From: a virus
Taxonomy: Duplodnaviria; Caudoviricetes
Virus record (IMG/VR): IMGVR_UViG_3300021256_000062
Coordinates: 94,918-158,917 of that record
Direction: 5' to 3' (one strand)
Length of the DNA: 64,000 nucleotides
Shown here one piece after another: positions 2,949-51,039 of the stretch. Every line of letters begins with the position of its first letter. The stretch's first letter is position 1. The position numbers and the translations under genes are program-made. Below the pieces are notes generated by a model. It was given only the letters and a program-made list of their open reading frames with translations, was not told the origin of the DNA and searched no databases.

Positions 2949-2958
2949 TAATTTTATT

Positions 2959-3032
2959 TGGCAGGGGCGGAGAGATTCGAACTCCCGTTGATGGTGTTGG
3001 AGACCATAGTCCTACCACTGAACGACACCCCT
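2959..3032 (-). tRNA. tRNA-Trp(CCA)
   Basis: Cloverleaf, ATGGT-CTCCAAC-ACCAT, encoded CCA. Confidence 0.95.
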
Positions 3033-3033
3033 A

Positions 3034-3413
3034 TGGTGGAGATGAGGGGAATTGAACCCCTGTATTGAAATCAGTCCATTTGACTTTCTACATATTATCT
3101 TATTTATGTCCTCGTACAAATTACATCATCAGTAAATAAGCAAATTAGAAATGTAATTCAATTAGTTTCTATGGTCATTTCGATTTCCTTTCGACTACTA
3201 ATAAATGCAAAGTTCATCTACCCCTATATCGATTAACTACTAATTAGTATAGGTATCCTAATTTTCGTTTCCTAATTTATCTAATTAGGCAAATGCATAT
3301 GCTCTAGGAGCATTGTTTAAAGTTGCGGTTATTTAAACCTCGACGTTGATAACCCAGTCTACTGGATATGCTTATCATCTTTCATAACTCCAAGCGAATC
3401 CATAAACATCCCC
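3034..3413 (-). ncRNA. ssrA: tmRNA; tag peptide ATLNNAPRAYAFA* (3285-3326)
   Basis: 5' GGGGATG..GGATTCG, 3' GGGGTTCAATTCCCCTCATCTCCACCA with G3-U70; resume context AATAACC-GCA. Confidence 0.93.
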
Positions 3414-3426
3414 ATATTTAATTTAT

Positions 3427-3501
3427 TGGCGGGTCCTGAGAGATTCGAACTCCCCTATGGCAGCTTAACAGGCTGCTGCCCAACCACTAGGCCAAGGACC
3501 C
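3427..3501 (-). tRNA. tRNA-Asn(GTT)
   Basis: GCAGC-CTGTTAA-GCTGC, CCA. Confidence 0.95.
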
Positions 3502-3918
3502 TTTTAATATATTATCAATTAAATAATCTTTTTCATACTTAATATTTGATTTTTGACCATTTTTTGGGTTATCATATCTAATATTAAGTCCACTTGTAGG
3601 TGCATCATCAATACTGATTAATAAAATAACATCTCTTGTTACATTATAACAAGCGAAATAATCAATTTCAGTAGCATTATAAATATGTCTAACACCTTTT
3701 GTACAATGAAGAGTTGATGATACTAAACTAAATTTCATAACTCCATTCTCAGCTTTAACTGATGTTTTAACTTGGATTTTATTTAATTTACCATTAAATT
3801 CTGCAATTAAGTCAGCCTTTTCATTATCACCGAAAGGTACATAAACAGGTATACCTAACTCCACAAATTTACATAATACTTTAGCCTCTCCAATATTCCC
3901 TATTGACTTACTATTCAT
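3487..3918 (-). CDS. PD-(D/E)XK endonuclease (free-standing homing-endonuclease type)
   Basis: GNIGE..., PFGDNEKADLI, KIQVKT, IDYFACY; probable start ATG 3918 after AGGAG; stop lies inside the tRNA-Asn 5' end. Confidence 0.85.
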   Translation of the reverse strand: MNSKSIGNIGEAKVLCKFVELGIPVYVPFGDNEKADLIAEFNGKLNKIQVKTSVKAENGVMKFSLVSSTLHCTKGVRHIYNATEIDYFACYNVTRDVILLISIDDAPTSGLNIRYDNPKNGQKSNIKYEKDYLIDNILKGSLA

Positions 3919-3938
3919 AATGTTACTCCTAATTATAA

Positions 3939-4015
3939 TGGTTCCACCTAGCGGACTCGAACCGCTCATCTACCGCGTGAAAGGCGGGTGTCTTAACCAA
4001 CTCGACTAAGGTGGA
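3939..4015 (-). tRNA. tRNA-Glu(TTC)
   Basis: CCGC-CTTTCAC-GCGG, CCA. Confidence 0.93.
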
Positions 4016-4053
4016 ATATACTGATTATCTTTTACAATAATCAAAAATATTAA

Positions 4054-4129
4054 TGGTGGACAGGCTTGGAATCGAACCAAGATATCTAGTTCTTCAGACT
4101 AGCGCACAGACCACATATGCCATCTGTCC
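4054..4129 (-). tRNA. tRNA-Phe(GAA)
   Basis: CTAGT-CTGAAGA-ACTAG, CCA. Confidence 0.9.
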
Positions 4130-4130
4130 A

Positions 4131-4207
4131 TGGTCTCCTAAATTGGATTTGAACCAATACTTTGTAAGGTTTGAGCTTACTACCTCTTCCAATTGGGTTA
4201 TTAGGAG
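4131..4207 (-). tRNA. tRNA-Leu(CAA), short variable arm
   Basis: GTAAG-CTCAAAC-CTTAC, CCA. Confidence 0.9.
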
Positions 4208-4213
4208 TTGTAA

Positions 4214-4289
4214 TGGAGGTCTCTCTCGGATTTGAACCGAGGTTCATGGTGTTGCAGACCATTGCCTTAATCCACTTGGCTAAGAGACC
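4214..4289 (-). tRNA. tRNA-Cys(GCA)
   Basis: ATGGT-CTGCAAC-ACCAT, U73, CCA. Confidence 0.93.
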
Positions 4290-4294
4290 TATAT

Positions 4295-4371
4295 TGGTGG
4301 ACCCTACAGGACTTGAACCTGTGACAACTCGGTTATGAGCCGAGAGTTCTAACCAACTGAACTAAAGGTCC
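4295..4371 (-). tRNA. tRNA-Ile2/Met(CAT), Ile2-like body
   Basis: GGACCTTTAGTTCAGTTGGTTAGA start typical of Bacillota Ile2; CTCGG-CTCATAA-CCGAG. Confidence 0.88.
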
Positions 4372-4377
4372 ATTTAC

Positions 4378-4446
4378 TAGATACATATTATAATCGGACA
4401 AATTTTCAGTTCGTAGATTTTAATAGTAATTTGCTGTTAGTATCTA
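4378..4446 (-). ncRNA. Clamp RNA 2 displaying a Phe(GAA) anticodon stem-loop
   Basis: TAGATAC-TAACAGCAA ... GTATCTA; apical ACGAA-CTGAAAA-TTTGT. Confidence 0.7.
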
Positions 4447-4511
4447 AATGTTCCTAATATTCTTTTAATGATGTATGATAGATTGCAACACAATTGATGA
4501 TTTATTTTTGC

Positions 4512-4636
4512 AAGTCACTTTCTCTATCAATTACTGATACACAATCCTTCATCATACATCCTGCATATTTTTAAATAATTTTCTTCATTGTAGTTGTTCT
4601 TTTAAATATTTATAAATTATTTGCAGTTCGTGACTT
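4512..4636 (-). ncRNA. Clamp RNA 3 (AT-rich interior, no tRNA mimic seen)
   Basis: AAGTCAC-GAACTGCAA ... GTGACTT-G. Confidence 0.55.
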
Positions 4637-4686
4637 AATGTGATTTTGTTTAAAATTGTTCACCAACAACTTTTCATTATTAAATA

Positions 4687-4762
4687 TGGTGAGTCCGACG
4701 AGGTTCGAACTCGTGACCCCATGATTAAAAGTCATGTGCTCTACCAGCTGAGCTACGGACTC
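4687..4762 (-). tRNA. tRNA-Lys(TTT)
   Basis: CATGA-CTTTTAA-TCATG, CCA. Confidence 0.95.
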
Positions 4763-4766
4763 ATCT

Positions 4767-4843
4767 TGGCACACCGTAAGAGATTCGAACTCCTAACTTA
4801 TCGCTTAGAAGGCGATTACTCTAATCCGTTGAGTTAACGGTGT
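4767..4843 (-). tRNA. tRNA-Arg(TCT)
   Basis: ATCGC-CTTCTAA-GCGAT, CCA. Confidence 0.95.
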
Positions 4844-4854
4844 ATTCACATATT

Positions 4855-4883
4855 ATTATACAACATATTTATTTAATTGTCAA
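4855..4883 (-). promoter_or_regulatory. sigmaA-type promoter
   Basis: TTGACA-17-TATAAT. Confidence 0.85.
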
Positions 4884-4921
4884 GTAGGACTAATTTAATA
4901 GCCCTACTTTTATTATTACAA

Positions 4922-6145
4922 TTAAATTAAATAGTGAATATTCTTTCCATAACTTCTCTTAAATACTAAATATTTTATTCCTTTAGAGATTAGAATATTA
5001 TTCTTACATCTATTGTAATTATCCTTATAAGTTGTTACAGCATTCTTATATTCATCTTCATTCTCAAAATCACATCTATCTGGTTGATAGATTGATTCTT
5101 TACGTAATTCACTTGAAACCAATTCATCATAGTCTATATGTAAATCATTAGAATTAATGATATTTAACATCAACTTTGTGTCAAACTGAATATCTTGTGT
5201 ATTAAATCTTATATAGTAACCATCGTAATCATAACAAGCATCTTGTTCACTAAATATATCTAGTCTTAATTTTGAAGTTGTTGTTTGTGTACCATCATTT
5301 AATATTGCATAAACATTGTAATAAACAGGTTCAATATTCACAATATTTAAATCTTTAATGGCTTCTTCAAATGGTATTCCTTGAGATAATTCAAATGATA
5401 TTGCTCTTAAACAATCATAGTTTATATCAACTTTATTTGCGAAATTAATTACTTTAGATATTTCACCATAATATTTAGGTTCTAATTTATCTTCCATATA
5501 TTCTCTAATTTCATCAGCTGTAGGATAATCAAATCTAAAATGATAATGAAATCTACCAGGTCTATTGATTAAGAAATCATTTAAACCATTTAAATCATTA
5601 CATGTTACTACAAATAATTTCTTACTATTTGCAAGACCATCAAATAAAGTTAATAATGTAGTTTGGGAACTTGATGATGAGCCATCTCTATCTTCATCTG
5701 TAAATTTCAAATTACCTCTACCACTTTGAGCTTGTGCAAAAGTTTTATCAAATTCATCAAATAAAACTACACACTCTTGTTCAATTTCAGTTAGGTAATC
5801 AGCTATACCTGGGATATACTTATTAACAACTATAACAGGTAAGTTTTCCTCTAAAGATTTTTTTGCAATTAATTTTGCACAAATTGATTTTCCTATTCCC
5901 TTATCTCCTGATAAAATAACACCAAGATTTCTGTTCATAAGTTTATAGGCATTTAATACCTTATTTACTTTAGATAAATGTGGACCATAAATCTTTTCAT
6001 TAACATCAATCATTGGATAAAGTTGTAAGAAAAATCCAGATAATGGAGAGAATTCTACAGTATAACACTTATTAGGTAATACATCATAAGTTCTCAAATC
6101 ATCATCATAAATTCTGTAAATATTTCCTGTATTTACAATTTTCAA
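4922..6145 (-). CDS. AAA+ ATPase
   Basis: Walker A GDKGIGKS, Walker B VLFDEFDK, TCN, RPGRF. Confidence 0.9.
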   Translation of the reverse strand: MKIVNTGNIYRIYDDDLRTYDVLPNKCYTVEFSPLSGFFLQLYPMIDVNEKIYGPHLSKVNKVLNAYKLMNRNLGVILSGDKGIGKSICAKLIAKKSLEENLPVIVVNKYIPGIADYLTEIEQECVVLFDEFDKTFAQAQSGRGNLKFTDEDRDGSSSSSQTTLLTLFDGLANSKKLFVVTCNDLNGLNDFLINRPGRFHYHFRFDYPTADEIREYMEDKLEPKYYGEISKVINFANKVDINYDCLRAISFELSQGIPFEEAIKDLNIVNIEPVYYNVYAILNDGTQTTTSKLRLDIFSEQDACYDYDGYYIRFNTQDIQFDTKLMLNIINSNDLHIDYDELVSSELRKESIYQPDRCDFENEDEYKNAVTTYKDNYNRCKNNILISKGIKYLVFKRSYGKNIHYLI

Positions 6146-6168
6146 TTAAATCACCCTTTCATTTTTTA

Positions 6169-6245
6169 TGGTGCCATCTCTGGGATTCGAACCCAGACTT
6201 AAGGGCTTTTAAGACCCTTGCCTCTGCCAATTGGGCTAAGGTGGC
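6169..6245 (-). tRNA. tRNA-Leu(TAA), short variable arm
   Basis: AGGGT-CTTAAAA-GCCCT, CCA. Confidence 0.92.
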
Positions 6246-6251
6246 ATTTAT

Positions 6252-6328
6252 TGGTTCGCCAAAGTGGATTTGAACCACTGACCTCTCGATTATCGGTCGA
6301 GTGCTCTAACCAACTGAGCTACTGGCGA
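6252..6328 (-). tRNA. tRNA-Ile(GAT) (C at position 33)
   Basis: CTCGA-CCGATAA-TCGAG, CCA. Confidence 0.9.
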
Positions 6329-6331
6329 ATA

Positions 6332-6460
6332 TGGTACCCACAAAAGGACTTGCACCTAATACTGTATTGCGTTCATCTCGGTGGCCATCTCCAAGATTCA
6401 TCCTCATCTCCTTATTTCAGTTTGCAACCATCCATAAATCAATGTGACTATAACGTGAGC
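6332..6460 (-). ncRNA. Oversized tRNA-like RNA (acceptor, T arm and CCA around a long non-tRNA interior)
   Basis: GCTCACG/TGTGGGT-A-CCA; T-like arm AGG-TGCAAGT-CCT. Confidence 0.45.
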
Positions 6461-6474
6461 ATATATAAGTTTAA

Positions 6475-6564
6475 TGGCGGTGCGTGTAGGATTTGAACCT
6501 ACGGGTGGAGAACCACCGCCGGTTTTCAAGACCGGTGCAATAAACCAGACTCTGCCAACGCACC
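6475..6564 (-). tRNA. tRNA-Ser(TGA)
   Basis: CCGGT-CTTGAAA-ACCGG, long variable arm, G73, CCA. Confidence 0.95.
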
Positions 6565-6571
6565 ATCTATT

Positions 6572-6647
6572 TGGCGACCCCAGTGAGACTTGAACTCACG
6601 ACACCGGCGTGACAGGCCAGCATTATAACCAGCTTAACTATGAGGCC
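6572..6647 (-). tRNA. tRNA-Asp(GTC)
   Basis: CTGGC-CTGTCAC-GCCGG, CCA. Confidence 0.93.
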
Positions 6648-6703
6648 AAAAATAACTTGGTATCTTCCTAACCATGGCTTGTGTAGATACCAGAACCGTA
6701 ACC

Positions 6704-6812
6704 TGGTGGATGAAGACAAGAATTTCACTTGCAAAGACCTTTAATTAACTAGTATACTGTATCAGTCACCATTGTTACAGAATGGCTACTTTTTATAATT
6801 GTATATTCATCC
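6704..6812 (-). ncRNA. Oversized tRNA-like RNA with Tyr(GTA)-type anticodon hairpin
   Basis: GGATGAA/TTCATCC-A-CCA; CCATT-CTGTAAC-AATGG; T-like GCAAG-TGAAATT-CTTGT; no canonical D arm. Confidence 0.5.
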
Positions 6813-6833
6813 ATTTACTAAATATTAAATTAA

Positions 6834-6910
6834 TGGTCGGAGTAGCAGGATTCGAACCTGCGACGTCTAGTTCCCAAAACTAGTGACCTAACCAGCTGGC
6901 CTATACCCCG
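6834..6910 (-). tRNA. tRNA-Pro(TGG)
   Basis: CTAGT-TTTGGGA-ACTAG, CCA. Confidence 0.95.
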
Positions 6911-7119
6911 ATATTATAAAGATTTCCCTGTTTTATATCTCTATCAATCCCAATGACTCATACTACATTTTCCGAAATTTTATAAACACTCTCATCTAAA
7001 CTACTACCAATGCTTAATGGTTCAGTTGTAACGTACTCTCAACGTTATATTACCAACTATATCTGTCTTTATCTTTTTCAACCCATATTTTACAGCCAGG
7101 ACTATAGCTATTTAATTAT

Positions 7120-7205
7120 TGGTGGTTGGGGTAGGATTCGAACCTACGTACCGATTAAGGAACAGATTTACAGTCTGTCGCGTTTAACCACTTCGCTACC
7201 CAACC
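7120..7205 (-). tRNA. tRNA-Tyr(GTA)
   Basis: ACAGA-CTGTAAA-TCTGT, variable arm, CCA. Confidence 0.95.
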
Positions 7206-7218
7206 ATATTATTTATTT

Positions 7219-7295
7219 TGGTGTGATGTGGGAGATTTGAACTCCCGACCCCTTGAGCCACAATCAAGTGTTCTACCAACTGAACTAACACCACC
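7219..7295 (-). tRNA. tRNA-His(GTG) with A73
   Basis: CTTGA-TTGTGGC-TCAAG; G-1 encoded; ACATCAC-A-CCA. Confidence 0.93.
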
Positions 7296-7300
7296 ATGTA

Positions 7301-7376
7301 TGGTGCAGTATACAGGACTTGAACCTATAACCTTTAGTTTGTAAGACTAACACTCTCCCAATTGAGTTAATACTGC
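7301..7376 (-). tRNA. tRNA-Val(TAC)
   Basis: TTAGT-CTTACAA-ACTAA, CCA. Confidence 0.93.
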
Positions 7377-7380
7377 ATAT

Positions 7381-7455
7381 TGGCAGGACCGGAAGGAATC
7401 GAACCTTCATAATTCGGGTCAAAGCCGAATGCACTAACCGTTGTGCTACAGTCCT
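7381..7455 (-). tRNA. tRNA-Gln(TTG)
   Basis: TTCGG-CTTTGAC-CCGAA, CCA. Confidence 0.93.
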
Positions 7456-7462
7456 ATAACTA

Positions 7463-7553
7463 TGGCGGTTGCTGAGGGACTTGAACCCCCGCGGGCTTTC
7501 ACACCCCTATCGCGTTAGCAATGCGACCTCTTCACCAACTTGAGTAAGCAACC
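7463..7553 (-). tRNA. tRNA-Ser(GCT)
   Basis: TCGCA-TTGCTAA-CGCGA, long variable arm, CCA. Confidence 0.92.
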
Positions 7554-7562
7554 ATCAAATAT

Positions 7563-7591
7563 ATTATACAATTATTTGTTTTAAATGTCAA
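7563..7591 (-). promoter_or_regulatory. sigmaA-type promoter
   Basis: TTGACA-17-TATAAT. Confidence 0.85.
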
Positions 7592-7612
7592 CTTTTTTAT
7601 ATTATTTTTTTT

Positions 7613-7688
7613 TGGCACATCCAGATGGATTCGAACCATCAATACCAGGTTCGTAGCCTGGTGGTTTAATCCATTAGCCTATGGATGT
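7613..7688 (-). tRNA. tRNA-Arg(ACG)
   Basis: CCAGG-CTACGAA-CCTGG, CCA. Confidence 0.93.
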
Positions 7689-7692
7689 ATAG

Positions 7693-7767
7693 TGGTACCA
7701 CCTACCAGACTTGAACTGATATTATTCGGGTATGAACCGAACTTCCTAACCATTGAAAGAAAGTGGC
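7693..7767 (-). tRNA. tRNA-Met(CAT), elongator-like
   Basis: TTCGG-TTCATAC-CCGAA, CCA. Confidence 0.8.
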
Positions 7768-7824
7768 ATAAAAAATATCAGTTTTCTTTTTAATTAGTCC
7801 TCTAAAACTGATAAAACCTGAACT

Positions 7825-7901
<77 letters not shown>

Positions 7902-7909
7902 ATATAAGT

Positions 7910-7987
7910 AATCAAACTCAATTGTGGAGGTGATTTAAGGTGAATGTTTTTTGGAGGAAAAAAATATTATTTCAATTGAGTTTGATT
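7910..7987 (-). ncRNA. Hairpin RNA with anti-Shine-Dalgarno-like loop
   Basis: 15 bp inverted repeat AATCAAACTCAATTG/CAATTGAGTTTGATT; loop has TTCCTCC, TTCACCTT, ATCACCTCC. Confidence 0.5.
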
Positions 7988-8062
7988 TGGAGCGGATGAT
8001 GGGAATCGAACCCACATATCCAGCTTGGAAGGCTGGAGTTCTAACCATTGAACTACATCCGC
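7988..8062 (-). tRNA. tRNA-Gly(TCC)
   Basis: CCAGC-CTTCCAA-GCTGG, U73, CCA. Confidence 0.95.
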
Positions 8063-8101
8063 ATTTGAAGGTTTCAAGTCTTATTATACCTACAACTTAT
8101 T

Positions 8102-8178
8102 TGGTGGGGATGGAGGGAGTCGAACCCACACTGTCTAGTTTCTAAAACTAGTTCCTCTGCCAATTGGGATACATCCCC
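8102..8178 (-). tRNA. tRNA-Leu(TAG), short variable arm
   Basis: CTAGT-TTTAGAA-ACTAG, CCA. Confidence 0.92.
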
Positions 8179-8185
8179 AAAATAC

Positions 8186-8302
8186 AAGACTCATTTATCA
8201 TGGGTTTTGCAGGACTTGAACCTGCTACTTTCAAATTAGAAGTTTGACGCTCTACCAAATGAGCTAAAAATCCTAGAATGGAGTATTTGCAGTATGAGTC
8301 TT
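8186..8302 (-). ncRNA. Clamp RNA 4 enclosing a near-complete tRNA-Arg(TCT)-like cloverleaf (8201-8273)
   Basis: AAGACTC-ATACTGCAA ... GAGTCTT-G; GGATTTT/AAAACCC acceptor with one mismatch, TCAAA-CTTCTAA-TTTGA, no discriminator+CCA tail. Confidence 0.8.
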
Positions 8303-8378
<76 letters not shown>

Positions 8379-8531
8379 ATTTTAAGTGTTGATTTTCCTA
8401 GGTTCAACACTAGCTTATAAGCTATCCCACCCATCGGAAGGAGATAAGTCACCACTTTATCTTTCTTTCATTTATCAGATGAACGCTTTATATCTATTAT
8501 AACTGTTCTATAGTAACAGATATAAACTATA

Positions 8532-8607
8532 TGGTGGAGCTAGTCGGGTTCGAACCGACGACTTTCAACTTGCAAAGCTGACACTCTCCCAACTGAGTTA
8601 TAGCCCC
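8532..8607 (-). tRNA. tRNA-Ala(TGC)
   Basis: GGGGCTA start with G3-U70, TCAGC-TTTGCAA-GTTGA, CCA. Confidence 0.95.
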
Positions 8608-8694
8608 AAACATGTCCAAGCTTAAAGTACGAGGACAGAATCCTACTAGAAGATAACTTAATATATTATACAATAATTGTTTTTAATTTTATAC

Positions 8695-8758
8695 AAGACT
8701 CTATTTTGGGTATTATGATTAAAAGTCATAGCCTAAAATAAATTGCGGTATAAGTCTT
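8695..8758 (-). ncRNA. Clamp RNA 5 displaying a Lys(TTT) anticodon stem-loop
   Basis: AAGACT-TATACCGCAA ... AGTCTT-G; TATTTTAGG/CCCAAAATA stem capped by TATGA-CTTTTAA-TCATA. Confidence 0.8.
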
Positions 8759-8792: not shown

Positions 8793-8898
8793 AAGACACT
8801 TCTTTTTGCGTATACCATTTCGCCACTTAGCACATGCTGCTGAGATAGGATTCGAACCTATAATAATCTAAAAGATTAAGGTTTGCTGTATGTGTCTT
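8793..8898 (-). ncRNA. Clamp RNA 6: YrlA-like permuted tRNA (variable arm, T arm, loop-closed acceptor, D arm)
   Basis: AAGACAC-ATACAGCAA ... GTGTCTT-G; ATAGG-TTCGAAT-CCTAT, CTCAGCA-GCATG-TGCTAAG, TG-GCGAAATGGTATACGC. Confidence 0.8.
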
Positions 8899-8932: not shown

Positions 8933-9072
8933 AAGACATTCTTGTTGATTTTAAGTGTGATACCATTACACCACTCCCCTATATAATTAAATATATGGCA
9001 GGGGAGGAATGGATTCGAACCATCATCACTGGAGTTGCAGTCCCTATCATTTAGAATTGCAGTAAATGTCTT
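8933..9072 (-). ncRNA. Clamp RNA 7: circularly permuted tRNA with Cys(GCA) anticodon arm and internal CCA
   Basis: AAGACAT-TTACTGCAA ... ATGTCTT-G; order GGA-CTGCAAC-TCC, GATGG-TTCGAAT-CCATT, CTCCCCT-G-CCA, AT hairpin, AGGGGAG-TG-GTG-TAATGGTAT-CAC. Confidence 0.8.
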
Positions 9073-9081
9073 TATTTTATT

Positions 9082-10713
9082 TTATAACCAAGAAGGTTTA
9101 TCCATCTTTGATATAGTATTTCCAGACCACTTAATTCCAGCTTTAGTGACATTCTCTAAATATGGAATTGAATCATATGTCTTAACATCTAATTCCTTAA
9201 CTAGTGCTAAGAATGGGTCAGTCTCACCATTTAACACCATATTTAAAGTATTAACTGAGAATCCTGATACTAATACAACACCATTTTCATTTTGTGTTAA
9301 TGGAATAGTGTTTGTTCTAGAACATACATTCCAGAATACTAATTTAGGTAATTTATATCCTGCACTAGCATATTTTGTTTGCGCATTTCTAAATACATTA
9401 CTATCACTATTAAAATGATTATAACCATATGAAGAATCAAATTCCATATCTGAAATAATTAAAATTTGTTCAGGCATATCTTCAGGTTTAACCTTACCTT
9501 CAACAGCTGTCTTTAAGATTAAATTGAATACATTCTCAATATTAGTGTTTGAACAATCACTATAACAAAGACAAGTTTGTAATTTAGAATGTAATGATTG
9601 ACACATAGATAAATCTACTAATTTAGCTTGAGATGAGAAAGTAATAAACTTATCTTTAAATGTATCATTTAATCTTTCTGAACAATAAATTGCCAATGCA
9701 GTTGATACATCTAATGCGGTTGTATTACCAGAACCTACTTTTGACGTCATTGAACCTGAACCATCTCTAACAACGATTGTGTTATTTAAACCATCTTTTT
9801 GTTTTAGGTTCTTCCATAATTGTTCTAATGCTTCATCATAATCAGTTAAATGTGAATACCATCCATCACAATTAAAGTATTTAGTAACAATTTCGTGTGG
9901 GAAGTTAACTGAAGAATTAATCTTTACTTCCTTACCATCCTTATCTACACCTACTCTTAATGCAGCTAAGAAATCTCTACGTCTTTCTTCATCGTGTCTT
10001 AAGAAAGCATCCTTATACTTTAAGTTTGCTTTTGATGGAACTTGATTATAATCAATCTTACTCCATTCATTTGCAGATGTATAAGTTTCAATTACCTTTA
10101 AGTATGCTCTTAACTTTGATAAAAGTTGTCTATACTCTTTAGATGTTGCACCAAATGATTTGATGAAAATCTTTGCCAATTTCTTTGTTTTAGGAGATGA
10201 TGCATTTTCAGATGGCATCCACTTAGCTAATAATGAAATTGGTTTGTTATTATTCATATTAGTGAAATCTTGTTTTAATTGACTTAAAACAGTTTGTACC
10301 ATAAAATCTTGATATTCAGTACCAATGAAAACAAATAAGTCATCATATCTACCAAATTCAACTATTTGAGTCTTAATTAAGTCTTTAACAATTTCATCTT
10401 TATTCTTGAAATCTGAAACCTTAATTAAATGATTTAAGGCTACTCTAAATAATCTTCTTTCACCTAATCCTTCTCTTACTCCTCTTACATAGAATAAGAA
10501 TTTTAATAAGTATCTAGCATCACCTTGTTCAGCTAATACTAAATCAATATCCTTACAAATATCAGCATCTGTAAGTTTACGATATGAAGTTACCTTGAAA
10601 TTCATATCTAGTAATGGGTGGAAAGTAGTCTTATATCCCTCCATACCATTTTCAGTAATTGATACATTGTTTTGTACCTTTTTCATAGTTCCATAAAAAT
10701 CCATATTATCCAT
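9082..10713 (-). CDS. DUF2828-family protein (TROVE/Ro60-like helical domain + C-terminal vWA)
   Basis: TENG..., FYVRGVREGLGERRLF, FGRYDDL, LLAKWMPSE, IDYNQVPSKA, MIDAS VRDGSGSM, IISDMEFD, FWNV, VSGFS. Confidence 0.85.
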   Translation of the reverse strand: MDNMDFYGTMKKVQNNVSITENGMEGYKTTFHPLLDMNFKVTSYRKLTDADICKDIDLVLAEQGDARYLLKFLFYVRGVREGLGERRLFRVALNHLIKVSDFKNKDEIVKDLIKTQIVEFGRYDDLFVFIGTEYQDFMVQTVLSQLKQDFTNMNNNKPISLLAKWMPSENASSPKTKKLAKIFIKSFGATSKEYRQLLSKLRAYLKVIETYTSANEWSKIDYNQVPSKANLKYKDAFLRHDEERRRDFLAALRVGVDKDGKEVKINSSVNFPHEIVTKYFNCDGWYSHLTDYDEALEQLWKNLKQKDGLNNTIVVRDGSGSMTSKVGSGNTTALDVSTALAIYCSERLNDTFKDKFITFSSQAKLVDLSMCQSLHSKLQTCLCYSDCSNTNIENVFNLILKTAVEGKVKPEDMPEQILIISDMEFDSSYGYNHFNSDSNVFRNAQTKYASAGYKLPKLVFWNVCSRTNTIPLTQNENGVVLVSGFSVNTLNMVLNGETDPFLALVKELDVKTYDSIPYLENVTKAGIKWSGNTISKMDKPSWL

Positions 10714-10720
10714 CCTTTCT

Positions 10721-10782
10721 AGACACTACCATGTATATCCAACAACCATTAGACTTTACACTATTTGTTGCTGTATGTGTCT
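10721..10782 (-). promoter_or_regulatory. Clamp RNA 8 in the 5' leader of the DUF2828 gene, abutting its RBS
   Basis: AGACAC-ATACAGCAA ... GTGTCT immediately followed by AGAAAGG-ATG. Confidence 0.75.
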
Positions 10783-10802
10783 TATGTATTTTTACAAGTT
10801 CT

Positions 10803-10831: not shown

Positions 10832-10864
10832 CCCCTTAAAATTGACTAATTAATTTTTTATAAT

Positions 10865-12030
10865 TAAGATGTCCATGTAATACCTACTCATAGGTGTTAA
10901 CAACTCCTTAGGACTGAAGGGGAAGTGGTTTACATCCTTCGTATACTCCTCAAAGTATACCCGCTATTAATTAACTAAATTAAGGCTCAATATTATCTAT
11001 GGATAATATTGGAATAACTTGTGCTATTCTTTTACGCACTTAACCGCACGATTTATCTGTCGCCATCAAGGTTTATGGGTGCGACCCTGAGTTTGCTCTC
11101 TTCTACGCTGTATTCAGACTTCGCACTTATGGTAGCGAGGCACCAATAATTTTAACTGAACAAGGGTCGTTGTATTTCACATTCAGACCCTCAAAACTGT
11201 CAAGTGAATGATATTCTAGGTGTCATTCCCACTATTAATTTGTATTCAACAAGATACTCATCTAAGAGTACCTTGTGTTTTTGAATGTTTTCAGGCTAAC
11301 ATACAACCTTTCGCTAATCTAATAGCACTTTGTGAGGCTCAACCTCACTTGTCTTGAATAATAATTTGGTTGGACTTGAACCAACAATGGCTTTTAACCG
11401 ATAGGCTATGTGTTGCCAATCCCTATCTCATCGTTTCACCCATAAGGCATCTTTTTATTGGATTGAACGCTTGTGATTTCCCTCATTAATCTACAAATTA
11501 TTATTTTATATCAAGAGTTCCCTTTGCTAACGTGTCAGGTGGGTAGACCTATAATGTCGCAGCTCACATCTGCTAGACATTTACTTTTCGAACTGCTTAA
11601 GTCAGTTATTCCTACTTCGCAACTCAGTCCATTACGCTGTTTAATTTTTTCTACATTATAGGCCAAACGGGTTTAAATGCTACTTATGGTTCTCACATAA
11701 TCTTTCCGAAACTAAGTCGGTGCTTCGCATACTAGGAATAGTAAACATAATGTAAACTATTACGCTATTTGATGTATATCCCACATGATTAGGAGTTCTC
11801 ATTTAAATTGTAGTCACTATATAGTTTTCCTTCTAAGATTTCATTTTATATAGCGAAAAAATCAAATCCGCTAGTGTGTGATTAAAACCACATCCACCGC
11901 CACCTTATTTTTCTAAATAAGGAAAATATTTGCTCTTATTCTATGTTCTTTATATCGAGCTAACTTTTAGGAGTTTTTCATCCAATATATTTCAAGGACT
12001 AAAGTTAATTGAAATAATTAAGTTTCTCTA
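10865..12030 (-). ncRNA. Large (~1.15 kb) structured ncRNA candidate (GOLLD/ROOL-like class, family unassigned); ends approximate
   Basis: No credible ORF, raised GC, many hairpins and long-range complementarities, embedded tRNA-elbow domain, TGTATAAT -10 at ~12043-12050. Confidence 0.7.
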
Positions 12031-12060
12031 TTGAGATATTATATTATACAATATTTATTT

Positions 12061-12785: not shown

Positions 12786-15725
12786 TTATTTTAAATCTTT
12801 ATCTAAAATTATATCATCATCAGTTAAATCATCTAAATCTAGATAATCATCAACATCAATTTCTTCAATTTCATCATCATCTTCATCTTTAATAATTTTA
12901 ACATTATTTAAATCATAATTATAAATTAAAGTACCATCAATATCATCATTGTACATTGAAATCTCTAAAGTATTACCTTCAGTAGATAGTATGATATCTG
13001 AACTTCCAATATAATCTTCTAATTTTCTCATTAATTCATCATAGAATTCATCATAATCATAAAATTCCCAACCATCTAAATATCTGATTGCCTTTTCTAC
13101 ATTATCATTAAATTTATTTTGTGCATAATTTCTTTCAATTCTTTTTTGTTTCTCTTGGTCATAAGTCTTTATAACTAACACAGGGAACTTTGTATCCCAT
13201 CCAAATAAATCCCCAGCTACCATCATTCTATGAAGACCCTCTTGTCCTGGATAATATGATAAATCAAGAACTGCAATAGGGAATTTCTTCTTCTTATCAG
13301 TGATAACTGTCTTAAGATAATCCAATGTCTTCTTATCATATTCTCTTTGTTGTTTTAAGTCGTTTGCAGTAACTTTCTTATGTTTCTTACTACTGAACAT
13401 ATCTGCACAAGCCTCATAATATTCTTGTGGAGACATTTGAACTATTTCACCAACTAAATTCTTTTTATTCTTATAATAATCAACATCATTACCTAATAAT
13501 AAATCTTTCCATGAACCAGTGGTACCTGTAGTTGATGTATCAAATATATCACTACCATTTACATCTCCTGTACCATAGTCAAAATCATCACTTTCCTTTA
13601 ATTTAGTTCTAAAGTTTTCAATGAACTCTAAACGTTTAGGATTTCCACCTAATACATCAAATAATTTAAAGTTTTTAATGTCTTGATATCTTGAATAGAT
13701 ATATCCATCATCAGTTTTATATTTAAAGTTATAATCATCTCCTACCACATCATATATCTCAAATTCATTAGTATGGTATGAATCAGGACAATAAATAGCA
13801 CATACTTGGTTCTTATCAAAATCATTTACTAAATCAGTACTTAAGTAACCATTTTGATATGCTGCATTTTTCATATCAGTATGAACACAATCATATGCAT
13901 TTGCAACTAAATATAAATTACCTTCAATATATAATCTTTGTGGTTCAGTTTTTGATAATAGGAAATTCTTAACTTGATATGGACTTTCAAACATATATAC
14001 ATCAAAAGCATCTTCATCAAATTTAACCATTTCAGTAAGTGATTCTTTTTTATCCCAATATGAATAGGCAACAGCTAATCTTTGTTTTTGATTTGGATAT
14101 TCTTTTTCAGTTGCACTCATAAATCTTGATATGAAATCTTTTTTAGTTTCATTATCTTTAGGATAAATTTCCAATAATTTACTTTCATTTATGTTATTAC
14201 TATTACTTGGATTCTTATTATCTATTAATTTTATTTGGTTAGGGTAAAAGGTAATGATTTGAGTATCAATACCTGCATTCATCATAGAATTGTATAAAAT
14301 AATTCCATCATAATCTCCCTCGCCTTGAACAGCGTCTATTACATCATAATATGATGTATCATTACTAAAATCATAAGCACCTAATAATGTGAAATACAAA
14401 TCTGGTGTATTTATTCCAAATTCATTGACTATATCTAATTCATTTTCAAAATAATCTTCACCATTGTCGTGTGCTTCTACAAAGTCCCATAACTTATCAT
14501 AGTCTATAATAAAAGGCTTTTCTAAATTTAGATAACATTCTTTTATCTTATTTCCATAGCCTAAAGAGAATTGTTTATTTGGAGTAAAAAATGTAGCATA
14601 TTTAAAAACATCGAAATCTTTATTTGTGGAATGATAACAAACTAATAATCTACCTTGATTATCTCTTACTTTACTATTCTTAAAAAACTCTACTTGCTCA
14701 TTACTAAGTGGGTTTCCTTCGCTATCTACTTCTTGTGATAAGTCTTCATTAAGTTCTTCATTTACAACACAATTATCAAAATCAACCAAACCATAAGTAA
14801 TAACACCACCTTCATCAGCCTTAATGCCGTCATATCCTAGAGATTGAATTAATACATAAAATGGGTATTCTGATGTTATATCGTAAATGTAATTTGAACT
14901 TTCTAACCTAAAACCAAATTGTGAAAGGAATTGTTTTAATTGTGTAGGTGTCATCTCAATTAACTTACAAAAGTTAAGAAATTCTTTGCTGTATTTACCT
15001 TTTACATTCCATATAGATGAACCTATATACCCTACATCTAGCAATTCACATTTAGAAAAATCTATATCTTTACTAAAGACCTTATTACCATATTCTTGAG
15101 CATATTTTTTATTTGGTGTAAACCAAGTAAGTCTATCTTTAGAATTAATTAATTTATCACTATCTTGACCATGATAGACAAGTTCTTCATCTAAACTTGT
15201 ATGTTCACCTACTATGTCAAAGTATCTATCTTCCCACTCATCAAATTGTTTTTCTAACTCATCATAATCTATTTCAGGTATTTCAGTTCTAACAGGTTTT
15301 TTTATCCATCCAGTATATAGAGAATAAACACCATTTGATTTAGCTGGTTGGTTTACATCTTCTACATATAATTCAACTTCTCTACCCTTTACTTTTATTT
15401 CATATTTACTGTTAAATAATGATTTATAGGCATTACAAAGTAATTGCATTATCTTTATGTCATCAGTAGTTCCTAAATCTGCTACTATATGTAAATCAAT
15501 ATCAGACATGTCAGTATAGTTATAATTTGCACTTGAACCTAATAATCTTATATCAACTACATCAAGAGTTAATCCATCTTCTTTTAGGTCATCTAAAAAA
15601 CTATCAGCTATATCTAATAATCTTTCTTTTACATCATCTCTTAATTCATCATCTTCATTCCATAATTTAGGATTAAGTGTATCATTAACTTTTATTTCTT
15701 CATTTAAATTTTTATCTATTTTCAT
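12786..15725 (-). CDS. Polyvalent protein: N-half of a nucleotidyltransferase + 2 ART-PolyVal-like + unknown module + ParB-like domain
   Basis: LNPKLW, GSSANYNY..SDIDLH, ELYVED, GVYS..W; YHG/YHS..FT...A..YG..GYDGI; EGLHR; LxE[ESD] linkers. Confidence 0.75.
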   Translation of the reverse strand: MKIDKNLNEEIKVNDTLNPKLWNEDDELRDDVKERLLDIADSFLDDLKEDGLTLDVVDIRLLGSSANYNYTDMSDIDLHIVADLGTTDDIKIMQLLCNAYKSLFNSKYEIKVKGREVELYVEDVNQPAKSNGVYSLYTGWIKKPVRTEIPEIDYDELEKQFDEWEDRYFDIVGEHTSLDEELVYHGQDSDKLINSKDRLTWFTPNKKYAQEYGNKVFSKDIDFSKCELLDVGYIGSSIWNVKGKYSKEFLNFCKLIEMTPTQLKQFLSQFGFRLESSNYIYDITSEYPFYVLIQSLGYDGIKADEGGVITYGLVDFDNCVVNEELNEDLSQEVDSEGNPLSNEQVEFFKNSKVRDNQGRLLVCYHSTNKDFDVFKYATFFTPNKQFSLGYGNKIKECYLNLEKPFIIDYDKLWDFVEAHDNGEDYFENELDIVNEFGINTPDLYFTLLGAYDFSNDTSYYDVIDAVQGEGDYDGIILYNSMMNAGIDTQIITFYPNQIKLIDNKNPSNSNNINESKLLEIYPKDNETKKDFISRFMSATEKEYPNQKQRLAVAYSYWDKKESLTEMVKFDEDAFDVYMFESPYQVKNFLLSKTEPQRLYIEGNLYLVANAYDCVHTDMKNAAYQNGYLSTDLVNDFDKNQVCAIYCPDSYHTNEFEIYDVVGDDYNFKYKTDDGYIYSRYQDIKNFKLFDVLGGNPKRLEFIENFRTKLKESDDFDYGTGDVNGSDIFDTSTTGTTGSWKDLLLGNDVDYYKNKKNLVGEIVQMSPQEYYEACADMFSSKKHKKVTANDLKQQREYDKKTLDYLKTVITDKKKKFPIAVLDLSYYPGQEGLHRMMVAGDLFGWDTKFPVLVIKTYDQEKQKRIERNYAQNKFNDNVEKAIRYLDGWEFYDYDEFYDELMRKLEDYIGSSDIILSTEGNTLEISMYNDDIDGTLIYNYDLNNVKIIKDEDDDEIEEIDVDDYLDLDDLTDDDIILDKDLK

Positions 15726-49664: not shown

Positions 49665-49815
49665 AGTCTCTATTAAATCATATAGTACTTACTTAAGAGC
49701 CAAACTCGACTGAGATTCTAGGTTATGCTAGTTTGCTCAGTCTCTTCCTCATTAAAAATTTGTTATCAATCTTCTTTTAAATATTTTTAAATAATTAAGA
49801 TTGCTGTGTGAGACT
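49665..49815 (-). ncRNA. Clamp RNA 9, between the RNA ligase and HPr-like genes
   Basis: AGTCTC-ACACAGCAA ... GAGACT-AG; internal GACTGAG/CTCAGTC hairpin; TGTATAAT just upstream. Confidence 0.6.
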
Positions 49816-49848
49816 TCCTATATTCATAGGTACATAATATTATACAAT

Positions 49849-51039
49849 TTATAAATTATGTTTCATTAAATATTCTGGAGATACTGCCTTGAAGGATAGC
49901 TTACCATCCTTACCTCTAAATACAATACCCTCTCTTAGAACATCCTTATTAACAACTGACTTATCAGTTGCAATCTTTAGTAACTCGTCAACTGTATCTG
50001 GTAGAATAAAGTTCTCATCTAGAATTGGAACCCAAGGGATTGGTGTATCCCATGACTCAAGTAACTTTTTAGCTGTTATTGAATCCCATCTACCATTTTT
50101 AGAATCCTTGAAGTTGAATGCTGCAAAGTGATGACCCTTTAACTTTAAAGGATTACCTTGCCATCCTTCTCCATATGATTCTCCCTGGATACATACCCAA
50201 TCTAAATCTTTATTCTCATTAAGATATTTTTTAAGTTGATTTTCTACATCATATCTAGTTGCCATTTCCCAATAGATATTATCATTACCTTGGTATGTAT
50301 GTTCATTTGAATCATTCCATAATCTAATATTTCTAGAGCATACATAGAATTCAAATTTATTCTTTCCCTTTCTTACTAGTAAGAAAGTAGTAGATGTACC
50401 ATCAATCTTTTCAGTTGCAATTAATGGTGTCTTATCTTGTAGTAAGTAAGGCATATTCTGAATTCTCTCTTCATCAGTTTTAGATACAAATTCAGTTGGG
50501 AATGCTTTCTTCATATCCTTATGACCTTTTTTCATTCCTCTTAAGAATAACCATCTAAAGAATTTATATCTCATTAACCATTTAACTAACTTATTATTAA
50601 AGAACTTCTTATGTTTAGCTTTGTACTGTTTAATAGCTTGTTCTCTAACATCAGATTTTCTATAGTTATCTTCTACTACTGAATATGTTACTCCTAACTT
50701 TTCAGTTAAATCAGTTAATATTTCAGTATTAGGGTCTATACCTAATACATCTAAAGGTAAAATTAGTCCTTGTGATATAACATTAAATTTACCTAATTTA
50801 TAAGTTTTAATCTTATAATGTTTATTAGCAAGGAATTCAAATGCAGGATTTGATTCTGGTACCTTTGAATCAATTTCAAAGAATGCACATTTATCTCCTG
50901 GTTTAAATTCTCCTTTTTTAGTAATTAATGTCCAACCTAGTACATGTGCTAATTCAATATTATCTGCACCTTCAATAGGTTCTATTGAATCAACTACTTG
51001 AACATAGGCCAACATTCTTTTTCCATCTTTATCTAACAA
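49849..51039 (-). CDS. RNA ligase (DRB0094/Rnl2-like)
   Basis: IEPIEGADNIE, FFEIDS, SQGL, KTDEERIQN, TEKIDGTS, QGE, REGIV, SFKAVS. Confidence 0.9.
   Translation of the reverse strand: MLDKDGKRMLAYVQVVDSIEPIEGADNIELAHVLGWTLITKKGEFKPGDKCAFFEIDSKVPESNPAFEFLANKHYKIKTYKLGKFNVISQGLILPLDVLGIDPNTEILTDLTEKLGVTYSVVEDNYRKSDVREQAIKQYKAKHKKFFNNKLVKWLMRYKFFRWLFLRGMKKGHKDMKKAFPTEFVSKTDEERIQNMPYLLQDKTPLIATEKIDGTSTTFLLVRKGKNKFEFYVCSRNIRLWNDSNEHTYQGNDNIYWEMATRYDVENQLKKYLNENKDLDWVCIQGESYGEGWQGNPLKLKGHHFAAFNFKDSKNGRWDSITAKKLLESWDTPIPWVPILDENFILPDTVDELLKIATDKSVVNKDVLREGIVFRGKDGKLSFKAVSPEYLMKHNL

Follow-up and report, generated by a model that had tools for sequence, protein, structure and literature searches.

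A gene called as tRNA-Arg(UCU) in a tailed gut phage (Duplodnaviria; Caudoviricetes) is probably not an ordinary tRNA gene. Instead, positions 8185-8302 on the minus strand appear to form a single 118-nt non-coding RNA gene, in which a tRNA-shaped body is enclosed by a terminal stem of 7-9 bp and an adjoining unpaired motif, a module that we refer to as the handle. The element lies in a stretch of 64,000 nucleotides, hereafter the window, which is the final 64 kb of the 158,917-bp IMG/VR virus record IMGVR_UViG_3300021256_000062. It is part of a minus-strand tRNA array (2950-8610) with 27 ARAGORN tRNA calls and a transfer-messenger RNA (tmRNA), and it shares its strand with a gene for a DUF2828 protein, whose predicted fold resembles that of Ro60, the protein partner of Y RNAs.

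Architecture of the element

Followed from 5' to 3' along the minus strand, the element begins with the arm AAGACUCAU (8294-8302), which is identical in all six ortholog variants introduced below. At the DNA level, AAGACTCAT (8302-8294) complements ATGAGTCTT (8194-8186) without a mismatch, giving a 9-bp closing stem that is also present in the minimum-free-energy fold of the 117-nt stretch. Next to this arm, the family-level version of which is AGACUCA (8301-8295), stands the unpaired motif UACUGCAA (8287-8294; family consensus UACNGCAA), conserved in relatives as well as at distant DUF2828 loci, and a 13-nt linker, AUACUCCAUUCUA (8274-8286), then leads from the handle to G1 of the tRNA body. 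This cargo (8201-8273; ARAGORN and Rfam tRNA) consists of a 7-bp acceptor, a D arm, an anticodon arm, a T arm and A73, lacks CCA, and is called by ARAGORN as a 73-nt tRNA-Arg(tct). A 6-nt linker, UGAUAA (8195-8200), with an identity of 1.0 in the six orthologs, connects it to the 3' arm AUGAGUCUU with its terminal G (8185-8194), which complements the 5' arm and carries the CU(U/A)G end of the family. The element thus displays the entire handle module, that is, a 5' arm starting with AG, the unpaired UACNGCAA directly 3' of it, and a 3' arm ending in CU(U/A)G, the two arms forming a covarying stem of 6-8 bp.

A sequence-only reading of this DNA had described a nearly canonical cloverleaf with an acceptor mismatch, devoid of a discriminator and CCA tail and flanked by clamp arms, and our analysis largely bears this out. 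The cloverleaf is detected by both ARAGORN and the Rfam tRNA model (68.5 bits) and retains the conserved tertiary-interaction nucleotides, A3.C70 is the only non-standard pair of its acceptor, and the perfectly paired clamp (8302-8294 with 8194-8186) is conserved and covaries. The missing CCA is real as well, since all 26 other ARAGORN tRNAs of the window encode one and 8201-8273 is the sole exception among the 27 calls; the discriminator position, by contrast, is occupied by an A (8201), so that the 3' end reads ...AAAACCC-A, followed by UGAUAA. The acceptor is weak, with four A-U pairs plus A.C, and is absent from the minimum-free-energy and consensus folds. The anticodon loop is CUUCUAA, with UCU at 8240-8238. 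As had also been foreseen, tRNA scanners call the cargo and overlook the handle.

Conservation and covariation

Orthologs, gathered from the DUF2828 loci and by scanning viral and metagenome contigs for the pattern, fall into six variants: the window (= L020), L027, L007, L015, L004 (= L032) and L001 (= L002). Pairwise identity among these amounts to 1.0 for the 5' arm, 0.94 for handle plus linker, 0.91 for the tRNA body, 1.0 for the 3' linker and 0.97 for the 3' arm, and to 0.27-0.44 for the 60 nt on either side of the element. A comparison of L001 with L004 shows 2 differences over the 118 positions of the element, but 48 over the 76 of the neighbouring genuine tRNA-Thr. The unit of conservation is the entire 118-nt element, not the 73-nt body. 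Within the body, the T stem covaries (GCAGG/CCUGC versus GUUGG/CCAAC), and the 3' strand of the acceptor changes from AAAACCC to AGAAUCU with pairing retained, the A.C mismatch becoming A-U in L007 and L015.

When the search was widened to handles with a tRNA D arm after them, 19 viral loci emerged. Of these, 18 were new, and each of the 18 new elements is closed by a 3' arm. Fifteen sequences sharing the anticodon stem UCAAA/UUUGA were aligned as a subfamily. In this alignment, arm pair 6 is G-C in eight sequences, U-A in six and A-U in one, and pair 7 is C-G in 14 and G-C in one, with neither pair broken in any sequence. The covariation score of the closing stem was 0.207 compared with 0.074 in shuffles, was reached by none of 500 shuffles, and stayed at or below 0.058 in slid controls. 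This is a stronger test than that given by 23 distinct arm pairs from the phage and its relatives, a set which had been selected for pairing and in which positions 3-6 show two to four pair types with zero mismatches. The closing stem is selected as RNA.

These patterns make it extremely improbable that the arms are a DNA-level feature, be it a miniature mobile element with the arms as its terminal inverted repeats, the site of a homing endonuclease, or an inverted repeat arisen by chance. Short inverted repeats are indeed common in this AT-rich DNA (55 pairs in 6.5 kb) and endonuclease genes do occur within the tRNA array, but the copies of the handle differ by compensatory changes, G-U pairs included, bear an asymmetric unpaired motif beside the 5' arm only, and all lie on one strand, with no target-site duplications and no identical shared ends.

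A second explanation holds that the cargo is a decaying and functionless pseudo-tRNA, caught by chance inside a handle that alone matters. The A3.C70 mismatch, the lack of CCA and the drifting anticodon would suit such a remnant, as would the loss of the acceptor or anticodon arm in some relatives (L038, L039). However, the 15 sequences show either no substitutions or compensatory ones in the D arm, anticodon stem and T arm (98.7-100% of cells paired), the acceptor is kept paired through the 3'-strand changes described above, and a neutral remnant would not retain its L-shape across phages whose DUF2828 proteins are only ~33% identical, in which this cargo type is nonetheless found. We therefore regard decay as quite unlikely.

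The neighbouring DUF2828 gene

The presumed protein partner is encoded at 9082-10713 on the minus strand, where Pfam identifies DUF2828 and DUF7788 (vWA) only, without a TROVE signature. The element is located 780 nt downstream of this gene on the same strand, well within the ~4-kb neighbourhood in which Y RNAs are encoded. Neither phmmer nor hmmsearch against PDB sequences yielded a Ro60 match for the protein. An AlphaFold (AF2) model based on 40 homologues (mean predicted local distance difference test score, pLDDT, 86.3; predicted template-modelling score, pTM, 0.85) was compared with the PDB using Foldseek, and its 12 best matches were all Ro60/TROVE structures, among them Xenopus Ro60 (1yvr, E 1.4e-7), D. 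radiodurans Rsr (2nvo) and the Ro60 of Thermus phage phiLo (9kop and 9l5y), with full-length alignments at template-modelling (TM) scores of 0.4-0.6. Furthermore, the MIDAS residues D314, S316 and S318 (in the metal-ion-dependent adhesion site) are invariant. The DUF2828 product is accordingly modelled as a Ro60-fold protein, with a HEAT-repeat ring and a vWA domain with MIDAS.

Handles and DUF2828 genes travel together. Every locus that was fetched through the protein has handles flanking the DUF2828 gene, including L001-L006 (74-78% identity of DUF2828) and L034-L036 (51-56%), in which the arm sequence differs and UACAGCAA is retained. The cultured Enterococcus phage EfV12-phi1 (L037, NC_048087) has four candidate unannotated handles at 5289-5880, directly upstream of a DUF2828 gene annotated 'RNA-binding protein'; three of these have a clear closing arm and two a permuted tRNA-like cargo. 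In the opposite direction, DUF2828 is encoded by all five of the further viral records with handle-plus-tRNA elements that were examined for it, compared with none of 14 control genomes, and a single DUF2828 protein used as query against the viral contigs gave no match. GenBank has 701 phage records with a member of the DUF2828 family, among them those of cultured Enterococcus phages and of phages filed under Listeria, Staphylococcus, Bacillus and Escherichia. In relatives, a gene for the RNA 2'-phosphotransferase Tpt1 lies just upstream of DUF2828; neither Tpt1 nor RtcB is found in the record of the phage studied here.

Relation to Y RNAs and other known systems

Bacterial and phage Y RNAs have genes no more than 4 kb from that of Ro60, on the same strand, and combine a terminal stem and a conserved unpaired motif with tRNA-like domains that occur in either orientation (PMC4201824; PMC12135203). 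The element has the same anatomy: its 5' and 3' ends form a terminal stem adjoined by a conserved unpaired motif, and it contains a tRNA-like domain. YrlA (RF02553), Yrn1 of D. radiodurans and Yrl1/Yrl2 of phiLo likewise pair their ends beside an unpaired motif and carry a tRNA-like effector; their genes, which often come in several copies, share a strand with a Ro60-fold gene a few kb away, and they are found in phages with tRNA and RNA-repair genes. The tRNA-like domain of YrlA is permuted, as in four elements of this phage, and Yrn1 has the unpermuted order (D-like arm, anticodon-like arm, T arm) that is also seen at 8185-8302. By this analogy, the element would be the extreme of the unpermuted Y RNA type, having kept all of its acceptor stem as well as a canonical anticodon loop. 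It departs from known Y RNAs in its motif, which is UACNGCAA and not GNCGAA/CGAA, in its partner, which by sequence is DUF2828+DUF7788 and not Pfam TROVE, and in its cargo, a complete cloverleaf with its own 7-bp acceptor that is joined to the stem by single-stranded linkers. When run on the genome, RF02553 did not exceed 18.8 bits, its cut-off being 69, and these sub-threshold matches fell on ordinary tRNAs.

The same design is known from dictyostelid Class I RNAs (RF01414), which start with AAG, end with CUGU and have a 6-bp covarying terminal stem around a variable interior (PMC7919456). They also have an unstructured 11-nt motif after the 5' arm, with U, C, C, A and A at positions 3, 6, 9, 10 and 11 (PMC7919456), which fits NNUUACAGCAA of the handle in a comparison by these fixed positions alone. 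Class I RNAs are unlike the handle RNAs in being eukaryotic and 42-65 nt long, in having an RRM protein as their known binder and in having no tRNA cargo described (PMC7919456). RF01414 scored at most 16.5 bits on the genome against a cut-off of 41.5, its best full-length match, at a sub-threshold 15.1 bits, being the ninth handle of this phage (49738-49814; see below).

A single published suggestion in this direction comes from coliphage Bas63, where the Ro60-like protein gp130, encoded upstream of tRNA genes, counters the host defence ppl, and where it was surmised that 'some tRNA genes ... are possibly Y RNAs' (preprint PMC11482910). A Ro60-fold phage protein beside a tRNA array is common to both cases, but for Bas63 no RNA element, motif or structure was described. 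Some jumbo phages have also been reviewed as carrying TROVE proteins together with a tRNA-like partner (PMC7824862). In the literature accessible to us we found no paper or Rfam family describing DUF2828-associated handle RNAs, and Rfam scans at permissive thresholds returned no family for the handle.

Anticodon variation and decoding

A handle RNA of this kind has to be weighed against a genuine tRNA gene without CCA, specific for Thr(UGU) in relatives and Arg(UCU) here, for which the handle would be a leader and trailer that guides or gates maturation. RNase P and RNase Z would then release a 73-nt tRNA, the CCA-adding enzyme of the phage would complete it, and it would decode AGA; in one variant, the Ro60-like protein would hold a 'pro-tRNA'. 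We consider this unlikely overall, even though several points weigh against our own reading and in favour of a tRNA. The Rfam score of the cargo exceeds that of many genuine tRNAs of the array, its anticodon loop has the canonical 7 nt, with U33 and A37 present, and G18, G19 and the T-loop are preserved. Like ordinary CCA-less tRNA genes, the element presents a cloverleaf without CCA and with a U after the discriminator; the phage encodes its own CCA-adding-type enzyme, and RNase Z matures CCA-less precursors in many Firmicutes. AGA accounts for 90% of the Arg codons of the phage, so that a second UCU tRNA could be useful, and ACA for 43% of the Thr codons. The two fates may even be compatible, as YrlA of M. 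smegmatis can be a substrate of RNase P and of CCA addition (PMC4201824). Aside from decoding, the binding of the handle to DUF2828 is suggested by gene neighbourhood and analogy only, and the difference from the Ro60-binding GNCGAA/CGAA and the lack of a match to the Rfam YrlA model, both mentioned above, belong on the same side of the balance.

One point against decoding is that the amino-acid meaning of the anticodon shifts on an unchanged body. UCU is found only in the window and in the identical L020, whereas the five other ortholog variants have UGU on the same body, and a single change at position 35 (G35 to C) separates the two; UGU is also what a relative shows in a metatranscriptome contig. 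The 'Arg(UCU)' call would thus reflect a derived single-base change in a UGU-bearing mimic. Across the 15-sequence alignment, the loop is CUUGUAA in seven, CUUCUAA in the window, CUGUUAA in L055, CUUAUAA in L038 and 8 nt long in five, and neither the anticodon nor the 7-nt loop is conserved among orthologs as would be expected of a tRNA. In only 3 of the 18 new handle-plus-tRNA elements does ARAGORN read a normal three-base anticodon. An excess of substitutions in the anticodon over other unpaired positions was not seen, the D, variable and T loops varying too; the anticodon is unprotected, and we do not claim that it is enriched for change.

Two of these variants may be described separately. 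For the bodies with 8-nt loops (L049, L051, L052, L054, L041), ARAGORN reports a four-base anticodon, and L055 has the same handle-enclosed body with a 7-nt GUU loop.

The body also differs from the genuine isoacceptors of this genome, with which it does not share identity nucleotides. It has U20 and A73 where both genuine tRNA-Arg of the phage have A20 and G73, and G2-C71 where the genuine tRNA-Thr has C2-G71; positions 20, 73 and 2-71 are, as we assume from E. coli, determinants for aminoacyl-tRNA synthetases. Encoded CCA is absent from the element and from all its orthologs. Moreover, and unlike in CCA-less tRNA genes, the flanks are paired, carry a family-wide motif and are conserved at least as much as the body, which is unexpected for a processing leader, and each genome already has normal isoacceptors. 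Taken together with the varying anticodon, we infer that the triplet is not used in decoding.

As to its origin, the cargo had been proposed to duplicate the normal Arg(TCT) gene. That gene does exist at 4767-4843 (ARAGORN), but the cargo aligns poorly with it. A recent copy of either the adjacent tRNA-Thr or the normal tRNA-Arg was considered and rejected, identity to every tRNA of the array being 63-68%, which is background. Together with the absent A20 and G73 and the derived UCU, duplication could not be upheld. Nor could a capture of tRNA genes by clamps: the presence of the cargo type in phages with ~33% identical DUF2828 points to an old lineage and not to a recent capture.

Proposed function and implications

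Since its anatomy follows the logic of Y RNAs, namely stem and motif, a tRNA-like module and a Ro60-fold neighbour, we favour, with reasonable though incomplete confidence, the interpretation of the element as a Y-RNA-like handle RNA that carries an unpermuted tRNA mimic as its effector module. It would be transcribed as part of the polycistronic tRNA array, its 5' end being freed by 3' maturation of tRNA-Thr and its 3' end set by RNase P at the downstream tRNA. The Ro60-like ring might then be the docking site for the stem and UACNGCAA, as Ro60 is for the stem and bulge of Y RNAs, leaving the tRNA-shaped body as the effector, a tRNA mimic offered to proteins that recognise tRNAs. Such proteins might be tRNA-targeting nucleases of the host, for which the RNA would serve as decoy or inhibitor, or enzymes of repair and maturation, for instance the RNA ligase of the phage or the CCA-adding enzyme, for which it would act as a tether.

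A more specific version of the first possibility is that whole-tRNA handle RNAs are Ro60-like-bound decoys or inhibitors of host defence nucleases that target tRNAs, with anticodon loops that are rapidly retargeted. At present this is speculative, and we think it rather doubtful. If true, the UCU copy of this phage would be an adaptive switch of target from UGU, with GUU, UAU and uncleavable 8-nt loops as counterparts elsewhere, and many of the 'extra' or 'pseudo' tRNAs annotated in large phages would be counter-defence RNAs.

Independently of the target, our contribution is the likely reassignment of this 'tRNA-Arg' as a conserved handle RNA with a non-decoding anticodon derived by a single base change. 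The label that tRNA scanners give to this element, and to comparable elements in at least 24 further contigs, is tRNA-Arg, Thr, Asn, Gly, Ser or 'tRNA-???', and phage tRNA repertoires as well as arguments on codon supply would thus be inflated by RNAs that probably do not decode. The idea of Y RNAs would be extended in turn, as the DUF2828 family gains a candidate RNA partner with cargo up to an entire tRNA, and cultured phages allow asking whether the tRNA-like modules of Y RNAs engage tRNA enzymes or anti-tRNA nucleases.

Further handle elements of the phage

The 9-mer arm alone is not enriched (33 matches at up to one mismatch versus 26.7 expected), but arm plus the next eight bases, AAGACNNNTACNGCAA, has six exact copies between 2948 and 10783, and the minus strand carries every one of them, each with a complementary 3' arm ending in GTCT; neither a forward match nor a match to a reversed control pattern occurs anywhere in the 159-kb record. 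Looser forms of the pattern add copies at 4446, 4636 and 49816, giving nine handle elements, each with a complementary 3' arm ending in CU(U/A)G. Eight of the nine are within 8 kb around the DUF2828+vWA gene, and the ninth is beside an RNA ligase gene.

All are encoded on the minus strand, and one handle closes whole cloverleaves, permuted bodies, bare hairpins and a 5'-untranslated region (UTR) element, joining tRNA bodies in different registers, in agreement with the modular cargo and variable registers put forward earlier. The element at 2849-2948, the first clamp of that earlier description, proved to hold, as stated there, a whole cloverleaf with anticodon UCC and a weak acceptor (41.5 bits; 3 of 7 acceptor pairs non-standard), and its orthologs read UCC, GCU or UGA. 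The cargo at 4378-4446 is an anticodon-type hairpin with GAA in its loop, and that at 8695-8758 an anticodon-type hairpin with a CUUUUAA loop, while 4512-4636 is a divergent handle RNA with the arm AGUCAC and the handle AACUGCAA. A circularly permuted, YrlA-style tRNA body (T arm, closed acceptor, D arm) occupies 8793-8898, and another permuted body, with an internal CCA, lies at 8933-9072 directly downstream of the DUF2828 gene. The ninth element (49665-49816), ~30 nt downstream of an open reading frame (ORF) for an Rnl2-type RNA ligase (49849-51039, minus strand), has two possible 3' partners, near 49737 and near 49668.

The remaining element, at 10721-10783, is in the 5' UTR of the DUF2828 gene itself, where its 3' arm abuts the ribosome-binding site, an arrangement which suggests that the protein may autoregulate its own translation via this handle. 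The same element follows a TTGACA-N17-TATAAT promoter, and L001 and L004 have the same layout with compensatory changes in the arms.

Genomic neighbours and further observations

On its 5' side, the element is preceded by the genuine tRNA-Thr(UGU) (8303-8378, minus strand), whose CCA abuts the 5' arm with zero spacer, and on its 3' side it is followed by tRNA-Leu(UAG) (8102-8178, minus strand), which starts 6 nt after the terminal G and 7 nt after the 3' arm. Its orthologs are always preceded by tRNA-Thr(UGU), and in every variant the next tRNA starts 5-9 nt past the terminal G, a distance at which RNase P cleavage would set the 3' end of the element. No promoter or terminator of its own is evident; a weak sigma-70-like site is located upstream of tRNA-Thr, without a terminator. 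Owing to the abutting CCA, the short downstream spacing and the lack of own signals, it is probably the maturation of the neighbouring tRNAs that defines the ends of the RNA. Parts of the region occur in two animal-gut metatranscriptome runs, as assembled contigs with a depth of 3-11 that is similar over ORF and RNAs. One contig (X1 record 5) covers 8090-8303 of a UGU-bearing relative, and the contigs do not allow a 118-nt species to be told from a 76-nt one, or RNA to be told from contaminating DNA.

Upstream of the DUF2828 promoter, an ORF-free stretch extends over 1.2 kb (10850-12050, minus strand), of which 10850-11560 folds well beyond shuffles (z = -5.5), matches no Rfam family and may be a large structured RNA; within it, 11361-11500 gives a weak tRNA match with a large insertion (30.5 bits). 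Past this noncoding stretch and a 217-aa ORF, ~2 kb upstream of DUF2828, is an ORF for a 979-aa protein (12786-15725, minus strand) with an ART-PolyVal ADP-ribosyltransferase domain and a weak nucleotidyltransferase match. Canonical TTGACA-N17-TATAAT promoters might point to a Firmicute-like host.

Within the tRNA array, a PD-(D/E)XK endonuclease gene (3487-3969) and an AAA/STAND-like ATPase gene (4922-6145) are inserted, both on the minus strand. A perfect 15-bp hairpin between two tRNAs (7910-7987, minus strand) exposes a 48-nt loop containing AUCACCUCC, which resembles the 3' end of 16S rRNA and so has the look of an anti-Shine-Dalgarno sequence. Finally, the tmRNA (3034-3413, minus strand) encodes the tag peptide ATLNNAPRAYAFA, and the tag of its relatives is longer.

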